A stretch of DNA of 64,000 bases from Tubulanus polymorphus. Its lineage: Eukaryota > Animalia > Nemertea. The stretch spans positions 5,528,871-5,592,870 of the forward strand of contig NC_134025.1 of assembly GCF_964204645.1 (NCBI RefSeq), in the 5' to 3' direction. The stretch's first letter is position 1. Each line of letters begins with the position of its first letter. The notes beneath the pieces are model-generated. The model was not told the DNA's origin. It searched no databases and saw only the letters and a program-made list of their open reading frames with translations. Position numbers and translations under genes: made by a program. Below are positions 298-37,547 of this stretch, piece after piece.

Positions 298-25020
<24,723 letters not shown>

Positions 25021-26399: not shown

Positions 26400-26650
26400 T
26401 CAATCCGACATGTAAGTGCGCTTGTCCAACAGTTTCCTTATTGCAGAGTCCCAGTTATTTCCTAGTTCAAGAGTCGAATAAAGAATTGGGTATTTGTTGT
26501 CGATATCATGACAGAACTCGAGACTGTCCAGCATTTTTGGAAAGAGTTCTACTTTCACATTTTGCCATTCAGAAGTTCCTGCATCCATCATGTTTTGTAT
26601 CAAATAGCTTTGAATTGTGGATGGATTCAGTGATTGCTCAAGTATTCTAT
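26400..26650 (-). CDS. PARP4: PARP4 last coding exon, C-terminal domain (5' bound approximate), stop at 26400-26402
   Basis: ...TSEWQNVKVELFPKMLDSLEFCHDIDNKYPILYSTLELGNNWDSAIRKLLDKRTYMSD* resembles the human C-terminus ASEWVRRTEGQYPSICPRLELGNDWDSATKQLL. Confidence 0.8.
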
Positions 26651-28329
26651 GTTCGAAATAAAGCATTATCACGACAAGAATAATCAATGTGTTGAACAAC
26701 AAAAATCCATCATTCATTGCTTTCGCACCTATTCAAACAAAAAGATTGAGTAAAATTAGTTCTATGGAATAAAATTGTTGTACAATTTAATTTAACCCTT
26801 TCACTGCTGACTGATCAATACCCTATAGCGCTGGACATAATTTGAAAATTTTGAAAAATTCTGCGCTAGTGTTGAATTACGGGAATACCACGGTGCGTCT
26901 ACACCGCGTCACAGTGTATTGTTATAGTTACTAATATTTCACTATGTTTGACAGGTGCTGCCATCTTTCAATAGAGATAAAAACTAATTACTAATTACAT
27001 CAATACATCGCAGTGCGGTGTACTAGCAAAATCCATCACGGATTCATACACCGCACTGCAGTGTAGACGCACTGAAAGGGTTAATTGCAGAGTCATCAAT
27101 AACAGCACACAGGGCCAAACAAACGGGACACCACTTACCCAAAGATTTTAACCCAGCATTAATGAGCAACATTCTAAGCTCTTTTTCAGGAATAGCGAGA
27201 ATTTCTTGCACCTTCTCACTGAAATCCCAAAAATGTTTCTGCAATGAGAGAAGTTAACAATTACTGTCATGTCCGTTGTAAAAAATAGAAATAATGTTTT
27301 TGTGCAATTTCACATCTAGGAGCCTAACTCATTCATTTACCTGATTATCTTGTAACTGGAAAACATTCTTCAGATCATCTGGAGTAAGTCTTCTTGATGG
27401 CTTGATGATAAACCATTCATCTGAAAAATAAATTTAGTACATGTATATAACTACAAGATCATGCATATACATCAACTATCAAACTGACGTTTTTAAACTT
27501 GACTTTCAGATAATAACAACAAACTAAGATTCACCTTCCATCTGTAGAAATGGTTCCAAAAGGTAACAGTTATCACTTTGTTCTTTCTCATCATCCTAAA
27601 AAGTAATTTCAGACACAGATTTACTCTAGAACCGGTACATGATTCTTCAGTTTTTAAAGTACATAATGCAGCACATTAAAAGTACTGGAAGACAACATAA
27701 ATTTACTTTCCAACTGTTATTGTTACCTACATGCACATCCTAAGAAAACGTGAATATAAGTTACTGGAATAGGAACCTAACCTAGTTATGTGATAGATAA
27801 ATCTAATTTTCTATTGAATTGAGCGATGAATTTACAAAAGCAGTGAACAGCTGATAAATGCAAGCCAACAACAGACTTACTGAATAAATATCAAGTGAAC
27901 ATGGCACCAAATGGCAACTGTAATCACTAAGTTCTTTCATATCATCCTAAAGAGTAACATCACATACAAGTCTACCCTAGGATCAGTACATGATTCTTCA
28001 GCTTTGAAAGTACATAATTCAGCACATCAAAAGTACTGGAAGACAACATGAATTTACTTTCCAACAGTTATTGTTACCTACATGCACATCCTAGGAAAAG
28101 GTGACTAATAAGTTACTGGAATGGGAACCTTACCTAGTTACCGGTACATGATAATTAAATCTAGTTTTCTATTAAATTGCGCAATGAATCTAGAGAAGCA
28201 GTGAACACCTGGTAAGTGCAAGCATGGACTCTGGTCCATGGTGCAAGCCACAGAGGCTCGTATTTGAAGTTTGGGGGTGAACTGTTGCTTAGATCGTCCA
28301 ATATCCAAACTACTATATATATAAGAAGA

Positions 28330-28379
<50 letters not shown>

Positions 28380-31300
28380 CATGGATATTGGATGATCTTA
28401 GCAACAGTTCACCCCCAAACTTCAAATACGAGCCCCTGTGGTGCAAGCCAACAACAGACTTACTGAATAAATATCATCTGAATCAATGTAACTTCGAAGT
28501 GAACGATCAGGCAACACTTTTATCATGGGAGGTAAAATTTTCTGACTACTGGTATTGGTCGATTTTGAAATCTCCCGTTCGACACAATGACCATCAATTA
28601 TATCTCTAAAATTGCGTGGAGGAAAAACCTTTTTCATAGGAAGCTCAGCTTTCCTCCAAGATATAACAGGCTCGGGTATAGTCAAATCTGTAAAAAAAAC
28701 AAAAGCCAAAAATATTTTGTTGACTTACATACCTCTTCAAATTTCGTTAAGTCCTGTAGGTACGTAGGCTTTCTGGCTGAGAACAGAAAAGATTGTCGAG
28801 TCAGTAAAACATGTACCATTGGTCTTATGGTAAGTGAATTTGAACAATACACACACATGTTAATAATACATATTACAAAATTATTTTACTGTTTTGTTAC
28901 CATTTTCATTGTCATCTGATTTTGTTTTCATACATGCATCTTCATCGCTGTCAGGAACTGGCAATTTATTCTGATCTCCAGCATAAGTATAGGTAGTCGG
29001 ACTGCCGCCAAAGGAAAAAGCATCTACTTGATCAGTCACTGTTCTTGGTAATGAAATCATATCCAGAGACTGTTCTTTGAATCTAATTCTCGGCATAGCT
29101 CTGATCATTTTCTTTTTTTCAAATACTCCTGAATCCCTTCCAAAACCACGGTGGCCAGATGTCAGTCCATCATGTTCTACTGGAGAGAGGGCACTGCTAG
29201 AACCAAACCCAGCTGTTGCAGGTGTAGAACTACCTAACGTTGTGGCTTTTTCCAGAAGTGATGAACCAAAACTAACACTATCAGTACATGCATCTGGTCT
29301 TGCAGTGGAGTGTGTACCCCTAATCGATGATCTTATCTTCAATTTTCTAGCACTTTGACCATCTATCGATATTTTTTTCTTAGTAGCTGCTGTTGCTGCG
29401 TAAGTAGTTTCTGTTAATAATGCTTCAGCTCCACTACCAAAAGTTGTGGCTTTATCCAGACGCGATGAACCAAAACTAACACTATCAGTACATGCATCTT
29501 GTGTGACAATGGTGCGACGTAACCTACTCGCTGATCTTCTAAATTTTTCAATGTGTTCATCCAATAATGCGCCGTCTCTAGCACTTTGACCATCTAACGA
29601 TATTTTTTTTTTAGTAGCTGCTGTTGCTGCTGAACTAGTTTCTGCTAATTCATCAGCTCCAAGCAGTGATGCCGCTCTTAGATCCTTTTGAATGGAAGGC
29701 GGGGGAGGTCCTGGTGCAGAAAACCCTCGAGAAACAATCGATGCTTGATCAGTAGATTTTCGCATGAAGGTAGATTTAGATTTAGAAGTAGATTTTCGCA
29801 TGGCCAGAGGAGGTGGTGGGGCAGAAAACATTTGTGGTGCCAAACATGCTTGAACATTAGACTTTAGAATGGTTCCCGGGTGAGTTCCTAAATTTCCAGA
29901 GAGTAGTTTGGGAATTGGTGGGGCTGAGCTCATTGAAGCTTTCAAAGCTAACTTTGGAAGGAGAGGTGGAGGGAGAGATTGTGTCAGAGGTGGTGGAGGA
30001 GGTGGTGGTGGGAGAGTAGGTGGCGGAGGTGGTGGTGGGAGTGTACATGGCAGAGGTGGTGGTGGGGGAGGTGTTGGTCTAGAAAACAAGTTTGATACTT
30101 GATAAGTCGACTTTTGAATGCGTGTTTGGGGAGTTGGAGGAGCAGATATCTTTGAAGCTTTTAAAGTCAATTCTGGCATAGGTGGTGGGACAGGTGGTGA
30201 GGGATATGGTGGGGCAATCATTGAAGCTTTTGGAGTAGACTTTGGCATGTGTGGTGGGACAGGTGGTGGGGAAATCATTGAAGTTTTTGAAAATTTCGTC
30301 AGGGGTGGTCCAGGTGGTGGGGGAGTGGATAAAGCAGAAAATTCTGAAAATGTTTGAAACGCAGACTTTTGAATAGAAGGTGGAGTAAACTTTGAAGAAA
30401 AAAGCGGAAATCCCTTTTTAGCAGAAGCATATATACGCTTGGAAGCCTGAAGGGTATTTGAGGCTAATCTTAATTTTGATAATTGTTGTGAATCTAATTG
30501 TTCGGCTTTTTCATCAGCAATTAGGCCATAAGCATTGTCTGATCGTTGCCTCTGAGCAGAGGGAAGCTGAGAAAACTCTCTAGACCGTCGGGATATACCA
30601 ATAGACATTCCTGGTAGATGATGAGACTTTTCTGATGTTTGCTGCAGGTGCAGTGGGGCTTCCGCTTCTGAAAGTATATTCATAATGAATCTATCTTGAT
30701 AACTACTGTTATAATGTACCTGTATTTGAAATATTGCACAGTATTATTCTGAATGCATGGAATGAAGTGGCCATTAATGAAAAAGCAGAGCTCAAAATCA
30801 CTCATAATCATAAAACATACCAGTTGAAGATACCGCATAATCACATTGTTCTTCTGTTTCCAGTAGGGAACTAACCATCTTATCATCAGGGATTGAATAG
30901 TAACCGCTGTAGAAATCATCGCTAATAGCCTCTGAAATGAAACAGTCACAGCTGCTTATCATGCGCAGTAAAGGTGTAGTACGAGATGGAAACTGAAAGA
31001 GACTACTCACCGATGCAGAACATTTCAGAATCATCATAAACATCTTCAGAAGTTGATAAATATGATTCTGGCGGTGTCTTTATGGGAGCATCGCTCTCTT
31101 GCCAACCGATGTAGGGAAGAAAGTCAACAGTCTCCTCTTGTATAAGTTCATCAAACTGGGGTGAACTCAGTTTCTCATCCTTAAACAAATATGTGGAATG
31201 TTGAAATCCTAAAATTCATTTTGCTTCAATAATCATAAGCGCACAACAATTTGACTCGCTGAGAAAAATATTTTATTAGTGCTAGTAATGTAGGGGTAAA

Positions 31301-34300
31301 AGGTCTGCGCATGTAGATATTGATTACCGGTACCTTTTCTCGTTTCTCAATAGCCACGAAGCTAGTCAAAGCTGTCACTATTGAATACTTTTTACTCAAA
31401 TTGATTATGTAGTTCTTCCTTTTACGGACTGTAAATTCATGTTGTACACGATCTTTGTTTAACATTCCAACTTCCCAATCTTTGATAACTGAACGAGCGG
31501 TTAATCGATGAACAATCTGTGAATACAAATGAAAATGATAAAATTACAAAAATTCAAATGTGTACCTTTGTCTCATCAAATAATTTGCCCTGGTCCGCTG
31601 TAAGCAAGACCTTAAGTAAGATTGAAGAATTTATGATTAAAAAACCGAAACAAAACTGAGACGATATATGGCTTGACTGGACAAAACATAATATGAAATT
31701 GATGACTAACCTGACCATTAGTTCTGCTTAGTTCTGATGTCGACACAATTGTTTCCAATTCTCGATCACCAAATTTAGCTTTCAGTATGGCCTGAATGGG
31801 TTAAATAGTAAGTTCATAGTATCCATGCAAGGGACAACATATAAAAAGCACGACTTAAACAGAAGTGTTTTGTTATGATTCCTATGAAATATTATAAAAG
31901 TACCTGGTAACAATTTGATATGAATCCATAAACAACAAGACGCCTTCCATTAAACAATGAAGTAATTTGTTGTGGAGCTTGAATTACTACATTGTCATCA
32001 GCTCCCCATTCAATGGAAACTGAAGTAAGTGCTGGTTCATGTGTCATTTGCCACAAATCCTCTATCTGCGAGTGAAGTTATAAACAAATGATGAATACAA
32101 AGAGGCAAAAGAAAAGAGAGACAATAAGATGATAAATAAATAAAAGAGATAATAAACTAACCTTCTCGGTCCAAGTAGATTTTCTTTTTTCATCAAGAAA
32201 TATATATGCACCTCGGCCTGCACTTGCAAGCACTTTCAGATTATGTTGATTCGCCGTAGCACTGAAGCCGATTGTGAAAAGACGACTTTTTTCATTGCTT
32301 TCTTTCAATAACGACATCACCGAATTCATATTATCAACATGACCATCCGAAAGAAGAATAATGTTATGTACACGTTTTTTTCCACTGATCATAAGGTATG
32401 AGTTTAGTGGCTTATACAACTCAGTATTCCCACCATCAGCCTAAAATGTAACAACGGATTGAATCGATATCTATTGTTTTTAGTATGGAAAAACAATTAC
32501 TAGTAACATGTCTCTTAGGTTAACAAGAACCTGTAATTATGTATGATGTACCTTAGGAACAAATCTTCTGATATCTTCAAGAGTTATTTCATCATCCAAT
32601 GGATACCCCCAATATTCTGAATATCCTGTTCAATCAAAATCGAGAATGAAATTAAATACTTCTGAGCTGGTAGATCTTTCATTCATTAGTCAAATTTCTG
32701 CACTATATACTATCATACCTGTTCCAAACTTAGCCACATTGAAAGGTAAATTTTCTTCGTTTAAAAGTTCGGTCAGATAATTTGTCACTTGCCGTGCATG
32801 CTCTAATGATTTTCCAGCCATTGAATTTGAACAATCTATCAGCAAAGTGTAACTCATTGTTTTAAAGTCGACGTTCATTTCAAATTCAGGGTAAAACGTC
32901 AACATGGCTGCCTAAAAAGATTTATATTTTCGAGTCAAACAATTTTCAAGCGCTTATTATCGAGAAAATATTTTTCCTTATCTTCACTAACTAACCTCAC
33001 TATCCGGATAATCAGGTAAACTTTCAATCCACATTCTGGGGACATGTATCTCGGCTAGTGAAATGACTAATTCAAATGAATCATCATTGCATAATCGTTC
33101 ATTTTTTCCAAGTTGAACAACGGCTTTTGTGTCGGTTTTCTGAAGTTGAAAAAATAGAGTGTTTTTGTATTTATATCAATATTTGAATCAATCTCAATCA
33201 ATCATTGTTTTCACCCAGTATTATGCTATGTTATGGATAATTGTGAACTTCGAACATACCTTAGTCAGGGTTCTGAAGTTTGGACAAGTAATCTTTTTGA
33301 TAAGGAAAGGCATCTCAATGGATACATGCAATGAGAAATCACTAACTTCACCATCAGCTTTGAGCATATCATGACATATCTGTATTAATAGTAAATGAAT
33401 ACTCTTAAATAAGTCAATCATTCAGTTGTATTGGAGACTAAAAAGATTTGGAAAAATTATACGTACTTGTGTTGTAATGTCAAGATTCTTATCTTTCATC
33501 CATGGAGCAACAGCAGATCCAGCAATCTTGAATATCATGTCGTCTTGTAGGACTTGTAATTCAGTAACGTAAGTTATTTTGATGAGAACAGTGGCTTTTG
33601 GTGGTAAATTACCAACACTAACAGTAAATATATTCTGTGAAATAAGAAAGTAATATATTACTACCATATGAAAATTTGCCAAAATTTCAGAACAGCATCA
33701 ACAGAAAAGATTAGGCGAAATAAACTATTTACTGGCATCTCTTCATCCTGATCCATCAGATAGGCACCATGTCCAGCCTCAACTGCTTCTTTATATTCTT
33801 TGCGAGCTGTCTCTTTCTCTTTCACTTCACCGATGATATGTTTACCATTTATGAATGCTTCAAAACCACACACAGCAGCATTTTCATCCAACGGAAAAAC
33901 ATACTTTGCTTCTATAGGCGCATTATTTTCATTCGTGTATGACTGCAATACAACTACCTACAAAATGAAAAACATGTATAAATGATCTTCAGATTGTAGT
34001 TGATGCGACACAAAATTGTTCTTGTTGCATGTTTGACAGATAGTCTCTAATTTTTATAGGGCACACACCTCCGCAGCCAGATCAACGATCTTTCCACGAA
34101 TATGTATTGACTTCAGCGGTACTGGCGTATCGTTATCCGATACCAAACCAACTTTTACATTTTCCAATGGATCAGCAGCATTTTCAAAATCTGAAGCACG
34201 GAAAGAATGACAAAAATGGCAACTTATCTTCTGAACCTTCTGAATAAAACAAAACTTAAATTTTAAGATTTACATCGGTTATCCACATTGTCAGCGATAT

Positions 34301-37300
34301 CTTGTTCTTCGTCTAGATCAATTTGAGTATCATGTAATAAGTCCTGTTTTTCATTCTTATCAAAAATTTCTATGATATATCGCAATCTCTGCTGTTTCGC
34401 ATCATATATCACATACTGATCATCCTAAATTACAGAAGAAATGAACAATCATTTATTGTTCAATTGAGAATAAACTAAGTATAGATTAACTGTTTCTTAT
34501 GGTACCTCAAAATCGCTAGTGTTTCCCTTGTGCGTGCCAACGCCTTGAGTGCTATTGAATCCAGGGGGAGCTGATTTCAGATCAGGGGCATTGTTGTAAT
34601 AATCTTTTATTTTTCCCAAAGCAACCTCACAAACAGCAATTAATTGATGCCGACTACCATTGCCTGGATGAGTATATTTCAAGCTTGTACTAGAAAAACA
34701 AAACCACATTAAACAATGTATTGCAGTTTCTGGTTAGTATATTTCAGATTTCACTGATCATACCTTATCGAATCAGCAAAGTATATTCCATGTCCTAGTT
34801 GTCCATTGTACATTTCAGTTGGGATGTAAGCTTTTGGTAATAGAAGACCTCTACAATTTGAAGGTTTTCAGATATTCCAAAAATTGGGACTAATAGAGAA
34901 TGCCACACTAATATAACGAGAAAGATGATGTCCGAAAAGTTTCCTTTTAAGTAACTGGTAATTCATTGTTTTGACTACAACTTAATAGTCATCTTCCCGA
35001 GATCACTATTTGCAATTTATGAACATATGCTTAACTTACCGTGATAAAATACCCAAGAAGTTGTTTGTAGGAGAGCCATGAAACATGAGTCTTTGATTAG
35101 ATATGTGCTTGGTGAATTCATTGGATTCTATTGATCGATGAACTTTGTAGATATGAAACTCCATTTTACTTTTGACCTTCCTGAAGTACCAGTAAATACA
35201 TAATTTGTTGTATTCATACAGTTAAAAATATCTTTGAAAAAGCGCACAAACATAAGCCATACTGTGAAAGAGATTTCATGATCATATTGTTTATATTCTT
35301 GAAATCTGAATGATCTGGTTGAACCAATTCTAAGTCACATCTTAAAGCCTTATACTGAGCTACAGCACTGGGTTGTTTTTTCCAGCCAGTTGTCTCTGAC
35401 ACCGCAGAGATATCCCGAATTAGCTGCAACAAACCATCATAAGAAATTTTAGTCAATGCAACACAAAGTTTGATAGGGCTTGTGAGCATTGAATAGATCT
35501 AAATTTTTTTAAGGTTTATCATTAAATTATAAGTGGTGATTTGTACCGATACCTGACATAAATCTTGCTTTTGAGCGACATCTCTGTTCGACTTTATTTC
35601 CTCTTTATCACTACTCCCATGATGAGGTATGATATCATAGAATTCATTAGAGAGCAGCCGTAGTTTTTCAACGGGAATCGGGTTGATTGAAAGGACTTTC
35701 TGTATTTCGTACAACACTGATTCAGCCTTCTCAACCTAAAATGCAGAAATATCCTATGTGTGTAAATTCATAATTCAACCAACTTCCACCTATTCACTTC
35801 ATTGCGCAATATCTGTTTTTGATACCTTGTCATTTCCAATCTGTTTTATCCATTCAACACCACCCTCAACATCTCCGATAGAATCATTCCAAATGTTTTT
35901 CACAAATTTTCTAATAGCAGGTGAGATGGATTGGCTTAAGAAATGGTTTTCTTTGAAGAACTGAAAAGAAGATTCATTGAAAAAAAAAGTTATGAATAAT
36001 CAAGAATTTAACTTTCGTTTCAACTTGTGGTGCTGAACATTATTTACAAACCTTCCTTAAAAGTGGCGATCCCATCCCTGGTAATGGTTGAATGTTTTGA
36101 GACATATCGGAATTATCAATATAAGTGTCAGTGAATAATTTAGCATAAAAATCAAGAGCTTCATCTGCATTTTTTGGAAAGGCACACGCTCGTAACACTT
36201 GGTCCTGGACAGAAAGCACATTGATACAGTCAGATTACAAGTCCACAAGTCCACAAACAGCATGACTTCTACAATACTTCAAGAAATGTACGGTCATTGG
36301 TATACTTACATCTTCTTTCCCTTCCATATAAAGTCTGTAGCGGATGACATCCTTTTCTTCATTAGCCATATGCAACTCATAGATTACATAATCAGGTATG
36401 TCCTAGATTTTTTAACAGATGTTCTAAAATCGCTACTCGAAGATGTTATCACATTATGATTATAGGTTTGGTGGAAGTGGTTAGGGGAAAAATTGGTGAT
36501 AAAAACTCAGAAAACCACTTCATTATCCCTTTAAATGCTTGGACCAACATAGGCCTAACTTGGTATTATTCTTTACCTTTGGATTGATAGCATCCTCTTT
36601 TGAAAGAAGTTTTTGTGCAGTTTCAACCTAAGATAAAACATTTCATATATAAATAGGTCATGAAGATTATCTACATATTTGATAAGATAAATAAAAGGTG
36701 TAGGTGTACCTCAAAATATCTCAAATGTGCTCTAGCAATGCTGTACATGTCAGGCCAATGTGGTATGTTCTTATCAACTCCGATTTCCCATAGCTGAGCA
36801 TCATCTATTTCAATACTCTTTTCATTATGCGTATCTACAAGTGGTTAAGTAGTTCAAGAACAACTTCGAAGCAACTCAACTTATAATATGGATTTTCATT
36901 TTGGCACTCACCATCAATGCATGTTATTAAACCTTTTTTAAATTCATGCGATTCCTCGCATTTCTTTGGTTGTGCAACCAAATATTGATTGGAATCCACT
37001 ATTCTACCATTTTTAATGCAAGCATCAATGAATTGCTCTGTAACTATTGGTATTCCGAGTTTTAGCGCAGCCCGGCATTTGTATGTGGTATCTAGATCAT
37101 CAATACCAACTGCAAGCAAGTAGTCGCTCTGACAAATAGAAACAAAATTAATCATTATTCGGATTTGACATTTTCTAGAATAGGCCTGTTATAGTCTAAT
37201 AATAGCCTTAGCCGTTGTTTCAGGCAGGGTGACCCGTAGTCAGTAACCGTCTGCGGTTTAGTTTCACGATCGGATATTTTCACAAACCACAGAATATTTT

Positions 37301-37547
37301 CAGTTGGTATAAGCTCATCCGATTATAAAAAGCTTACCACCAACGATTAGGTAACTAACTAGGTGACCCGTAAGATTAGATTGTCTGGTATTTAGAAAAA
37401 GTATAGGCCTAATTTACTAACCTTTTTTGTTAGCATGTAAGATACAATGCCAGAATTGTCAGTGATTTTTTTGCGGATCTCTAATTTTTGCTTGAAATGA
37501 ACTTTTATTCCAAACTCCACAACAATCTGCCGCGAAGTCAGTGCCAT
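26400..37547 (-). CDS. PARP4: PARP4 (vault poly(ADP-ribose) polymerase, vPARP) orthologue, multi-exon; ATG at 37547-37545, stop at 26400-26402
   Basis: Domains in collinear order on the minus strand. Exon 1 MALTSRQIVVEFGIKVHFKQKLEIRKKITDNSGIVSYMLTKK resembles the human PARP4 N-terminus MVMGIFANCIFCLKVKYLPQQQKKKLQTDIKENGGKFSFSL. BRCT: KCRAALKLGIPIVTEQFIDACIKNGRIV. ART domain: QYKALRCDLELV, LMFHGSPTNNFLGILSRGLLLPK, GHGIYFADSI, KYTHPGNGSRHQLIAVCEVALGK, KSAPPGFNSTQGVGTHKGNTSDFE. VIT: QSYTNENNAPIEAKYVFPLDENAAVCGFEAFINGKHIIGEVKEKETARKEYKEAVEAGHGAYLMDQDEE and NIFTVSVGNLPPKATVLIKITYVTEL, near-identical to human PARP4 VIT. VWA: LLIDCSNSMAGK (MIDAS), ILLSDGHVDNMNSV, RLFTIGFSATANQHNLKVLASAGRGAYIF. Then HRLTARSVIKDWEVGML...LTSFVAIEKREK, DVDFLPYIGWQE, a proline-rich exon, and C-terminal ELGNNWDSAIRKLL (human ELGNDWDSATKQLL). 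Confidence 0.92.
26796..27080. mobile_element. piggyBac-like MITE (285 bp) flanked by TTAA target-site duplication, in a PARP4 intron
   Basis: TTAA at 26792-26795 and 27081-27084. Termini ttaaccctttcactgc... and ...cagtgtagacgcactgaaagggttaa (TTAA+CCC ends, 16-bp TIR CCCTTTCA(C/G)TGC). Internal inverted repeats ggtgcgtctacaccgcgtcacagtg / cactgcagtgcggtgta / caccgcactgcagtgtagacgcac. Read-through of this element falsely extends ORF 27044..27244. Confidence 0.75.
27138..27238 (-). CDS. PARP4: PARP4 exon (KHFWDFSEKVQEILAIPEKELRMLLINAGLKSLG)
   Basis: Acceptor ttgcag (AG 27240-27239), donor GG|GTAAGT (27137-27132). Aligns to human FWKLTPELGLILNLNTNGLHSFLKQKGIQSLG. Confidence 0.75.
27341..27420 (-). 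CDS. PARP4: PARP4 exon (xEWFIIKPSRRLTPDDLKNVFQLQDNQ)
   Basis: Acceptor tttcag (AG 27422-27421), donor CAG|GTAAAT (27340-27335). Only one frame is open, and it needs an upstream exon ending in phase 1. Confidence 0.6.
27538..28240. repeat. Tandem duplication (2 units of about 340-355 bp, about 80-85% identical) in a PARP4 intron, each unit ending in a copy of the 5' splice-site region of exon 28464-28687
   Basis: Unit 1 27538-27900 and unit 2 27901-28240 align along their length (...catgattcttcag(c/t)tt...aagtactggaagacaaca(t/g)aaatttactttccaac(t/a)gttattgttacctacatgcacatcctag...). Unit 1 ends tgcaagccaacaacagacttactgaataaatatca, identical to the exon/donor junction at 28440-28474. Confidence 0.75.
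28241..28449. repeat. Long inverted repeat / hairpin: 68-bp arms (28241-28308 and 28383-28449, about 93% complementary) flanking a (TA)n microsatellite
   Basis: Left arm gtgcaagccacagaggctcgtatttgaagtttgggggtgaactgttgcttagatcgtccaatatccaa. Right arm ttggatattggatgatcttagcaacagttcacccccaaacttcaaatacgagcccctgtggtgcaagcc. (TA)21 at 28334-28375 in the spacer. Confidence 0.85.
28334..28375. repeat. (TA)n microsatellite, about 21 units
   Basis: Read directly. Confidence 0.95.
28464..28687 (-). CDS. PARP4: PARP4 exon (DLTIPEPVISWRKAELPMKKVFPPRNFRDIIDGHCVEREISKSTNTSSQKILPPMIKVLPDRSLRSYIDSDDIYS)
   Basis: Acceptor ttacag (AG 28689-28688), entered in phase 1 from the Pro-rich exon (G+AT=D). Strongest donor TCA|GTAAGT at 28463. 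See findings for the phase problem with the next exon. Confidence 0.65.
28901..30703 (-). CDS. PARP4: PARP4 large proline-rich exon (about 1.8 kb, about 600 codons) containing a 2-copy 68-aa (204-bp) tandem repeat
   Basis: Acceptor tatcaag|AT (phase 1) joins the upstream exon ...AVSSTG. Donor AAT G|GTAACA at 28900-28899. The apparent stop at 28881 is intronic. PPPPPPPLPCTLPPPPPPPTLPPPPPPPP runs. Repeat units at plus 29237-29440 and 29441-29660: TYAATAATKKKISIDGQSAR...ACTDSVSFGSSLLEKATTLGS and TTYAATAATKKKISLDGQSAR...ACTDSVSFGSSRLDKATTFGS. Confidence 0.75.
32078..32905 (-). CDS. PARP4: PARP4 von Willebrand factor A domain exons (approximate; MIDAS DxSxS in the 32690-32905 block)
   Basis: ORFs 32690..32905 and 32078..32419 minus, with the VWA peptides given in the gene-level entry. 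Confidence 0.85.
33422..33948 (-). CDS. PARP4: PARP4 VIT (vault protein inter-alpha-trypsin) domain exons (approximate)
   Basis: ORFs 33661..33948 and 33422..33682 minus; peptides as in the gene-level entry. Confidence 0.85.
34411..35489 (-). CDS. PARP4: PARP4 ADP-ribosyltransferase (catalytic) domain exons: approximately 35214-35489, 35042-35205, 34772-34852, 34497-34709 (donor GAG|GTACCA after SDFE), 34290?-34428 (acceptor atttag at 34429)
   Basis: Hand translations: LMFHGSPTNNFLGILSR (His of HGS motif present); GLLLPKAYIPTEMYNGQLGHGIYFADSI; KYTHPGNGSRHQLIAVCEVALGKIKDYYNNAPDLKSAPPGFNSTQGVGTHKGNTSDFE; then DDQYVIYDAKQQRLRYIIEIF (human DDEFVVYKTNQVKMKYIIKF). Confidence 0.8.
36860..37128 (-). 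CDS. PARP4: PARP4 BRCT-domain exon (acceptor tttgtcag, exon starts 37128; 3' bound approximate)
   Basis: SDYLLAVGIDDLDTTYKCRAALKLGIPIVTEQFIDACIKNGRIVDSNQYLVAQPKKCEESHEFKKGLITCIDGECQNENPYYK. In-frame junction with exon 1 (…LTKK|SDYLL…) parallels human FSFSL|NPQCTHIIL. Confidence 0.75.
37422..37547 (-). CDS. PARP4: PARP4 exon 1 (initiator ATG; donor GTTAGT)
   Basis: Reverse complement of 37547-37422 translates MALTSRQIVVEFGIKVHFKQKLEIRKKITDNSGIVSYMLTKK. Phase-0 donor AAG|GTTAGT at 37421. Confidence 0.75.

Follow-up and report, generated by a model that had tools for sequence, protein, structure and literature searches.

The vault PARP (PARP4) orthologue of the palaeonemertean ribbon worm Tubulanus polymorphus (Nemertea) encodes glutamine at the position of the catalytic glutamate of its ADP-ribosyltransferase (ART) domain, so that the triad reads H-Y-Q rather than H-Y-E, and the donor-site loop of the same active site has been rebuilt. 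The gene lies on the minus strand of a 64,000-nucleotide stretch of genomic DNA (RefSeq assembly GCF_964204645.1, contig NC_134025.1, positions 5,528,871 to 5,592,870; hereafter the window, in which all positions are given), which has a eukaryotic character, with a G+C content of about 36% and short GT-AG introns. These departures were interpreted, with a probability of roughly 0.6, as a genuine glutamine accompanied by a lineage-specific rebuilding of the loop, in a protein that would still bind NAD+ and act as an attenuated, or perhaps substrate-assisted, mono-ADP-ribosyltransferase.

Glutamine at the catalytic position

The minus-strand exon that precedes the one with the catalytic codon ended in ...AACACTAGCGATTTTGAG|gtaccat at 34506, and the following exon began from 34424 as tctgtaatttag|GATGATCAGTATGTGATATATGAT, giving the spliced reading ...GNTSDFE|DDQYVIYDAKQQRLRYIIEIF. 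When compared with PDB chains by phmmer, this segment aligned without gaps to human PARP4 (tsdfeddQyviydakqqrlryiiei in the worm, ttdfeddEfvvyktnqvkmkyiikf in human). It was gapless against PARP1 also (...llyNEYivyd), which places the glutamine on PARP1 E988, as the initial annotation of this DNA had claimed. Counting along the PDB alignment placed it on E547 of human PARP4, with triad numbering taken from the structural study of that enzyme (PMC10711553). The same annotation had assigned the codon to 34418-34420; the diagnostic base, 34418 (C on the minus strand, G on the plus strand), was correct, but the span was off by two, since the codon runs from 34418 to 34416. Its further statement that the histidine of MFHGS and the tyrosine of GIYFAD are intact was also upheld (codons 35080-35078 and 34783-34781, respectively). 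Of the H-Y-E triad, His449 and Tyr485 were present, therefore, while the third residue was Gln555.

An alignment to other PARP4 proteins had been proposed with the original claim. Among 107 informative homologues, the catalytic position was occupied by glutamate in 106, by aspartate in one and by glutamine in none. The sample included vertebrates, coral, placozoan, molluscs, rotifers, sea urchin, PARP4-like proteins that may come from protists, and WGR-PARP relatives from bacteria. P0143 and P0155, which at first looked like exceptions, were left out as genomic open reading frames (ORFs) continuing into an intron. Glutamine was confirmed by this comparison as a true outlier, and would represent a genome-encoded substitution of GAG or GAA by CAG. 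The sole other homologue without glutamate was a 395-amino-acid protein from a JGI metagenome (P0099), which has aspartate (SKFEDS[D]YCIYD) and a normal R-T-D donor loop.

The splice junction

The catalytic codon follows closely on an exon junction, and its own AG could serve as a 3' splice site 9 nt downstream of the annotated one and in frame. This would produce ...GNTSDFE|YVIYD and restore a glutamate, in a sequence (E-Y-V-I-Y) that resembles the N-E-Y-I-V-Y of PARP1. Acceptors were scored with a leave-one-out position weight matrix (PWM) built from the 32 acceptors of this gene. The annotated acceptor scored 8.0 bits, against a mean of 6.2 for the 32 true acceptors, while the downstream AG scored 1.3 bits, a value equalled or exceeded by 25% of decoy AGs; the mere occurrence of an in-frame AG within 12 nt was unremarkable, being seen in 10 of the 32 true acceptors. 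Furthermore, the intron occupies the same position, in phase 0, in the coral Desmophyllum, the placozoan Trichoplax, the gastropod Candidula and the frog Engystomops; the gastropod likewise reads ...GATGAG at the equivalent place, with GAG there. None of the eight RefSeq isoforms uses the downstream site, and its use would delete three residues and shift from position -4 to position -1, relative to the catalytic residue, a phenylalanine that all 63 aligned homologues share. An acceptor within the CAG codon was rejected on intron position, PWM score, isoform models and phenylalanine register, and is considered extremely improbable. A splicing artefact is unlikely because the intron position is conserved and the two acceptors differ as described; the junction given in the initial annotation, which had itself named a different junction as a route to refutation, was retained.

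The donor-site loop and the remainder of the active site

The donor-site loop read PKAYIPTEMYNGQLGHG in the worm and PKVVEDRGVQRTDVGNLGSG in human PARP4. Since the worm loop contains no arginine or aspartate whatever, the loss of the R-x-D motif does not depend on the alignment. In an alignment of 63 homologues, the motif R-(T/S)-D (R466 and D468 of human PARP4, by counting in the alignment) was conserved at 98% for the arginine and 97% for the aspartate. By regular expression, R-x-D/N was found in 81 of 85 homologues, or 82 of 85, about 96%, with one additional RPD, bacterial sequences included. The conservation of this motif was established here rather than taken from literature; the worm sequence lacked it.

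Across the 39 columns that were at least 90% conserved among the 63 homologues, the worm departed at four: the catalytic glutamate, a leucine near the triad histidine, and the arginine and aspartate of the loop. At least four such departures were seen in only 4 of the 63. The third change concerns Met447 (35084-35086, minus strand, in MFHGS), two residues before the histidine, where 95% of homologues have leucine and 3 of 63 have methionine. All other features of the pocket were kept, namely His449, Gly-Ser, G-x-G-I-Y-F, Tyr485, Ser-Thr-Ser with Thr492, Tyr496 and A-L-G. The threonine specific to PARP4 was present (DSISTSLKY, compared with DSLSTSIKY in human), with Thr492 (codon 34688-34686) at the position of PARP1 K903 and human T484. 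The ratio of mean identity in the ART domain to that in the VIT domain, relative to other lineages, was 0.66, at the low end of the range of 0.66-0.82 but inside it. Judged from these sequence comparisons, the ART domain is still constrained and not decaying, and the rebuilding of the donor loop is a second, independent and apparently lineage-specific change in the same active site.

The loop also bears on the quality of the underlying sequence. The C might have arisen through an error in the assembly or its consensus, or might be a rare and possibly heterozygous allele, the normal PARP4 of the species having glutamate (GAG). CAG and GAG are one nucleotide apart, the C at 34418 is known from one assembly only, and with glutamate so extremely conserved, the prior probability of an artefact is higher for a lone exception. 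Against this, the site lies outside any homopolymer or repeat, on a 32-Mb scaffold from which RefSeq has derived eight isoforms of the gene with no 'low quality' flag, and the active site has a separate departure involving several residues. Because the loop change needs several substitutions as well as an insertion or deletion, no single base error could account for it, and the active site has truly diverged in this lineage. An error or rare allele is therefore quite improbable, and the opinion that the glutamine could equally be a sequencing error was overstated, given that it is present in all eight isoform models and is accompanied by an independent change of the donor loop.

A second PARP4 from the same species or a close relative was sought in several ways. 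Exact look-up of 10 ORFs from the window found none. A word-indexed search with the 182-amino-acid C-terminal region of the ART domain gave a best match of 51% identity. JGI metagenomes contained no match to the exact DNA pattern, in which either C or G was allowed as a wildcard, and a protein-guided metagenome scan returned none either.

Orthology and integrity of the gene

RefSeq isoform X1 (P0171) was aligned with splicing to the window at 100% identity, through 33 GT-AG exons from 37547 to 26400 and with an unbroken reading frame. When exon 12 alone was used to query a library of 1.84 billion representative sequences, it retrieved with 100% identity a protein of 2103 amino acids, XP_074640441.1, named by RefSeq as 'protein mono-ADP-ribosyltransferase PARP4-like isoform X3' of Tubulanus polymorphus. 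All eight RefSeq isoforms carry ...GNTSDFE|DDQYVIYD and an identical donor loop. A pseudogene, or a gene in decay, was ruled out by the exact ORF of 2154 amino acids over 33 exons and by ART conservation like that of other lineages. A tandem paralogue inside the window was ruled out also, as tblastn mapped a single copy of the PARP4-like gene.

The domain order was BRCT, helical regulatory domain (HD), ART, VIT, vWA and a C-terminal region resembling the MVP-interaction region, and was confirmed on the 2154-amino-acid model. The Pfam query for PARP_reg, PARP, VIT and VIT_2 was a conceptual splice of nine exons (474 amino acids), while BRCT and vWA were identified from neighbouring ORFs. The ART domain (PF00644, PARP) scored 109.8 bits against a cut-off of 26.7, and was preceded by the HD (PF02877, PARP_reg; 36.3 bits, cut-off 26.8); VIT and VIT_2 scored 134.4 and 49.4 bits. 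The vWA domain was found as VWA_3 on a single-exon fragment at 32081-32440 (27.8 bits, cut-off 27), and BRCT (PF00533) on an overlapping ORF at 36838-37188 (24.4 bits, cut-off 21.3). At the C-terminus, the last 176 amino acids matched residues 1637-1766 of a mammalian-type full-length PARP4 of 1786 residues (P0149; BLASTP, E = 2e-10, 28% identity), pairing LELGNNWDSAIRKLL of the worm with LELGKDWDSATKQLL; by this correspondence, the region is homologous to the MVP-interaction region of mammalian PARP4.

Human PARP4 was the best match among PDB chains (phmmer, 2.2e-59, compared with 1.5e-27 for PARP1), and the named protein-database matches, among the matches listed, were PARP4. By architecture and best matches, the worm gene is placed as an orthologue of PARP4, the vault PARP (PARP clade 5A), in agreement with the identity first proposed for it. 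Since orthology rests on the domains, the closest relatives and the characteristic threonine, the altered triad is a departure in a catalytic feature and not in ancestry.

Several structural features of the gene were observed besides. Isoform X3 skips exon 6, and all remaining differences between isoforms fall in the C-terminal exons, from approximately 28.7 to 27.1 kb. Exon 27 (28901-30667, minus strand) is a single exon of 1.77 kb, encoding about 590 amino acids of low-complexity, proline-rich sequence with runs of PPPPPPP and no Pfam match; within it lie a 27-nt tandem repeat, at 29986-30071, and a segment that is duplicated internally (...AATAATKKKIS[L/I]DGQSAR...DACTDSVSFGSS...). Its position matches that of the disordered linker preceding the MVP-interaction region in vertebrate PARP4. 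A perfect (TA)21 microsatellite occupies 28334-28375, within the intron that separates exons 28 and 29 of the PARP4-like gene.

Functional interpretation

The glutamate of the triad polarises the nicotinamide ribose, and in its absence the transfer chemistry would be strongly attenuated. His449, Gly-Ser, Tyr485, the Ser/Thr at 492 and Tyr496 are kept, and the BRCT, VIT, vWA and C-terminal MVP-interaction-like regions are intact; NAD+ would probably still be bound, and association with the vault maintained. The product could be a slow H-Y-Q mono-ADP-ribosyltransferase, perhaps assisted by its substrate as in the H-Y-I/L/Y PARPs, or, in the most extreme case, a non-catalytic scaffold. The functions conserved would be the scaffold functions of BRCT, VIT, vWA and the MVP-interaction domain. 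The lineage, then, probably has a weakened or altered enzyme.

The initial annotation had gone further, deducing a strict mono-transferase from the E988Q mutant of PARP1, in which chain elongation is lost. That deduction is largely moot, for human PARP4 is already mono-only (PMC10711553) and the worm keeps both Thr492 and F-E-D-D. PARP4 makes no polymer even with its glutamate, and mono-modification is the baseline of the family. What matters, then, is the extent to which mono-transferase activity is preserved, rather than whether monomers or polymers are formed.

Alternatively, the H-Y-Q site may be real and the protein a fully competent mono-ADP-ribosyltransferase, perhaps with a changed target or chemistry, the loop being a co-adaptation rather than a sign of decay. 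Such an enzyme may modify a different acceptor residue or may have more NAD+ glycohydrolase activity. There are precedents: the bacterial effector VopU, a natural H-Y-Q enzyme, modifies a host protein and loses this ability through Q141A, PARP1 E988Q still mono-modifies, and many PARPs work without the glutamate (H-Y-I/L/Y). In addition, the worm ART domain is constrained, with every other pocket residue kept. Against full competence, the presence of glutamate in 106 of 107 PARP4-type sequences, bacterial relatives included, indicates strong selection for it in this scaffold, and human E547K is ART-deficient, although lysine is a harsher replacement than glutamine. On balance, a fully competent enzyme is rather unlikely. 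A related idea, that the glutamine and the loop co-evolved for changed chemistry (a different acceptor, an NAD+ glycohydrolase or sensor, or a carboxylate supplied by a partner), so that the enzyme would not simply be weakened, is distinctly unlikely on the present sequence comparisons. Were it true, no earlier natural H-Y-Q protein of the PARP family would have had an activity assigned to it, and the gene would offer a naturally occurring separation-of-function allele with which to study the role of ADP-ribosylation in vaults.

Several points weigh against the favoured interpretation of an attenuated or substrate-assisted transferase. The finding rests on one assembly, as noted for the C at 34418, and no nemertean was named among the ten nearest cluster representatives, which included sea urchin and lungfish. 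R466 and D468 go unmentioned in the structural study of PARP4 (PMC10711553), which was consulted for their roles, so that any functional weight given to the loop change would be tentative. VopU is active and needs its glutamine, so attenuation does not follow of necessity; and since the ART domain is not decaying, a dead domain is disfavoured and some NAD-dependent function would be retained. Finally, there may be a second, glutamate-bearing PARP4 paralogue elsewhere in the genome, outside the window.

What the catalytic activity of PARP4 does is poorly understood, in vaults as well as in functions independent of them, such as the modification of PIDD1 (PMC13127586). Its glutamate is almost invariant across animals, amoebozoan-type proteins and bacterial relatives, and has been replaced in the worm while the fold, the pocket and the scaffold domains were kept. 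If real and fixed, this replacement would suggest either that the worm can manage with the non-catalytic functions or that an H-Y-Q site is adequate for the task, and it would give the one natural H-Y-Q transferase described recently a eukaryotic counterpart in the PARP family. The gene itself was already annotated in RefSeq, and what is new here is the shorter donor loop without R-x-D; no description of a vault PARP orthologue without the catalytic glutamate was found in the literature searched. It is a modest curiosity, a clean natural variant at an almost invariant residue and not a new kind of system; loss of the glutamate is common in other PARP clades, and the activity is reportedly dispensable in mice. 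The practical value is likewise modest, being a caution to annotation pipelines in which such proteins receive the name 'mono-ADP-ribosyltransferase' from homology.

Features of the window

The features of the PARP4-like gene are collected in Table 1. Downstream of it and on the same strand, several long exon ORFs at 9692-19268 (minus) belong to a separate neighbouring gene, for an axonemal-type dynein heavy chain, and include an AAA+ P-loop exon. Rfam and tRNA scans of positions 1-64000 detected no Rfam family at gathering score and no tRNA; in particular, the Rfam scan of the window gave no vault-RNA-like match beside the vault PARP gene. Neither these two scans nor one of the window for tandem repeats gave anything that bore on the glutamine.

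Table 1. Positions of the PARP4-like gene, its domains and its active-site elements within the window
Feature	Position	Strand	Basis or remark
Complete coding sequence, PARP4-like gene	26400..37547	minus	RefSeq isoform X1, XP_074640424.1, 2154 aa, 33 exons
BRCT-domain exon	36912..37128	minus	Pfam; limits from spliced X1 alignment
Exon 6, 153 nt, 51 aa (DQVLRACAFPKNADEALDFYAKLF...)	36052-36204	minus	in the WGR-like region that separates BRCT from HD
Helical (PARP regulatory) domain and start of ART, two exons (35735-35553, 35423-35263)	35263..35735	minus	Pfam
Exon 10, MFHGS, triad His449 (codon CAT, 35080-35078)	35040..35180	minus	His in 63/63 homologues
Exon 11, GLLLPKAYIPTEMYNGQLGHGIYFADSI, donor-site loop and triad Tyr485 (codon 34783-34781)	34764..34850	minus	Sequence; includes GHGIYFADSI
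Divergent donor-site (D-) loop, PKAYIPTEMYNGQLG	34793..34837	minus	3 residues shorter than human PARP4, without R-x-D
Exon 12, (S)TSLKYTHPGNGSRHQLIAVCEVALGK...GNTSDFE, Thr492 and Tyr496 (second NAD-site Tyr)	34506..34689	minus	PDB-chain alignment
81-nt phase-0 intron, two codons 5' of catalytic codon	34425..34505	minus	Same position in Desmophyllum, Trichoplax, Candidula, Engystomops
Exon 13, starts DDQYVIYDAKQQRLRYIIEIF, last ART beta-strands	34274..34424	minus	Acceptor tctgtaatttag|G, 8.0 bits on the gene's own PWM
CAG codon, Gln555 (X1), Gln504 (X3)	34416..34418	minus	Catalytic-Glu position, human PARP4 E547 / PARP1 E988
Linker and VIT domain, three exons	33467..34190	minus	Pfam VIT
vWA-domain exons	32162..32911	minus	Pfam VWA_3; tblastn of vWA-containing homologues maps here
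C-terminal exons, MVP-interaction-like, including ...LELGNNWDSAIRKLL	26400..27595	minus	BLASTP to mammalian-type PARP4

Comparison with known enzymes

The closest characterized relative is human PARP4 (PDB 8SX1 and 8SWY; Frigon & Pascal 2023, PMC10711553), which shares with the worm protein the order BRCT, (WGR), HD, ART, VIT, vWA and C-terminal MVP-interaction-like region; across the catalytic and VIT region the proteins are approximately 44% identical. The two have in common the histidine and tyrosine of the triad, the threonine at the position of PARP1 K903 and the acidic F-E-D-D that blocks the acceptor site, while the intron beside the catalytic codon is common to the worm, the frog PARP4 and the three invertebrate orthologues. 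The worm differs in having glutamine for E547, a loop that is three residues shorter and without R466 and D468, and methionine for leucine before the histidine. The human enzyme, with the triad H438/Y477/E547, is mono-only despite its H-Y-E motif, since T484, E544/D545 and a short loop are among the changes that disable its acceptor site (PMC10711553). In cells, human E547K is ART-deficient, and modification of PIDD1 is a function of PARP4 that is independent of the vault (PMC13127586). PARP4 activity was dispensable in mice, according to earlier work as quoted in passages of Citarelli et al. (PMC2964712).

PARP1 E988Q represents the same change from glutamate to glutamine at the homologous position, but it was engineered. 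The mutant keeps auto-mono-ADP-ribosylation and is a standard reagent as a mono-ADP-ribosylated substrate (PMC5413906). Its defect in elongation does not apply to PARP4, which is without a functional acceptor site even with glutamate.

VopU, a T3SS2 (type III secretion system 2) effector of Vibrio parahaemolyticus, has a natural H-Y-Q triad and is an active mono-ADP-ribosyltransferase on a host protein, abolished by Q141A; its authors claim it as the first natural H-Y-Q mono-transferase (bioRxiv 10.64898/2026.05.07.723553). The likeness to the worm protein, a natural H-Y-Q triad in the diphtheria-toxin-like class, would be a functional analogy only: VopU is a small bacterial effector, and shares only the ART superfamily and the composition of the triad. 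VopU has been assayed, whereas the worm protein, known here from its sequence, would be a eukaryotic H-Y-Q example from the PARP family.

Other eukaryotic PARP-family proteins likewise have the third triad residue replaced. The clade-3 PARP Q24C77 of Tetrahymena thermophila has glutamine there (Citarelli et al. 2010, PMC2964712), and PARPs without the glutamate (H-Y-I/L/Y/T) act as mono-ADP-ribosyltransferases (PMC10711553, PMC2964712). In the clades of Tetrahymena Q24C77 and the H-Y-x proteins, loss of the glutamate is the rule, whereas in vPARP clade 5, to which the worm gene belongs, it is otherwise essentially invariant.

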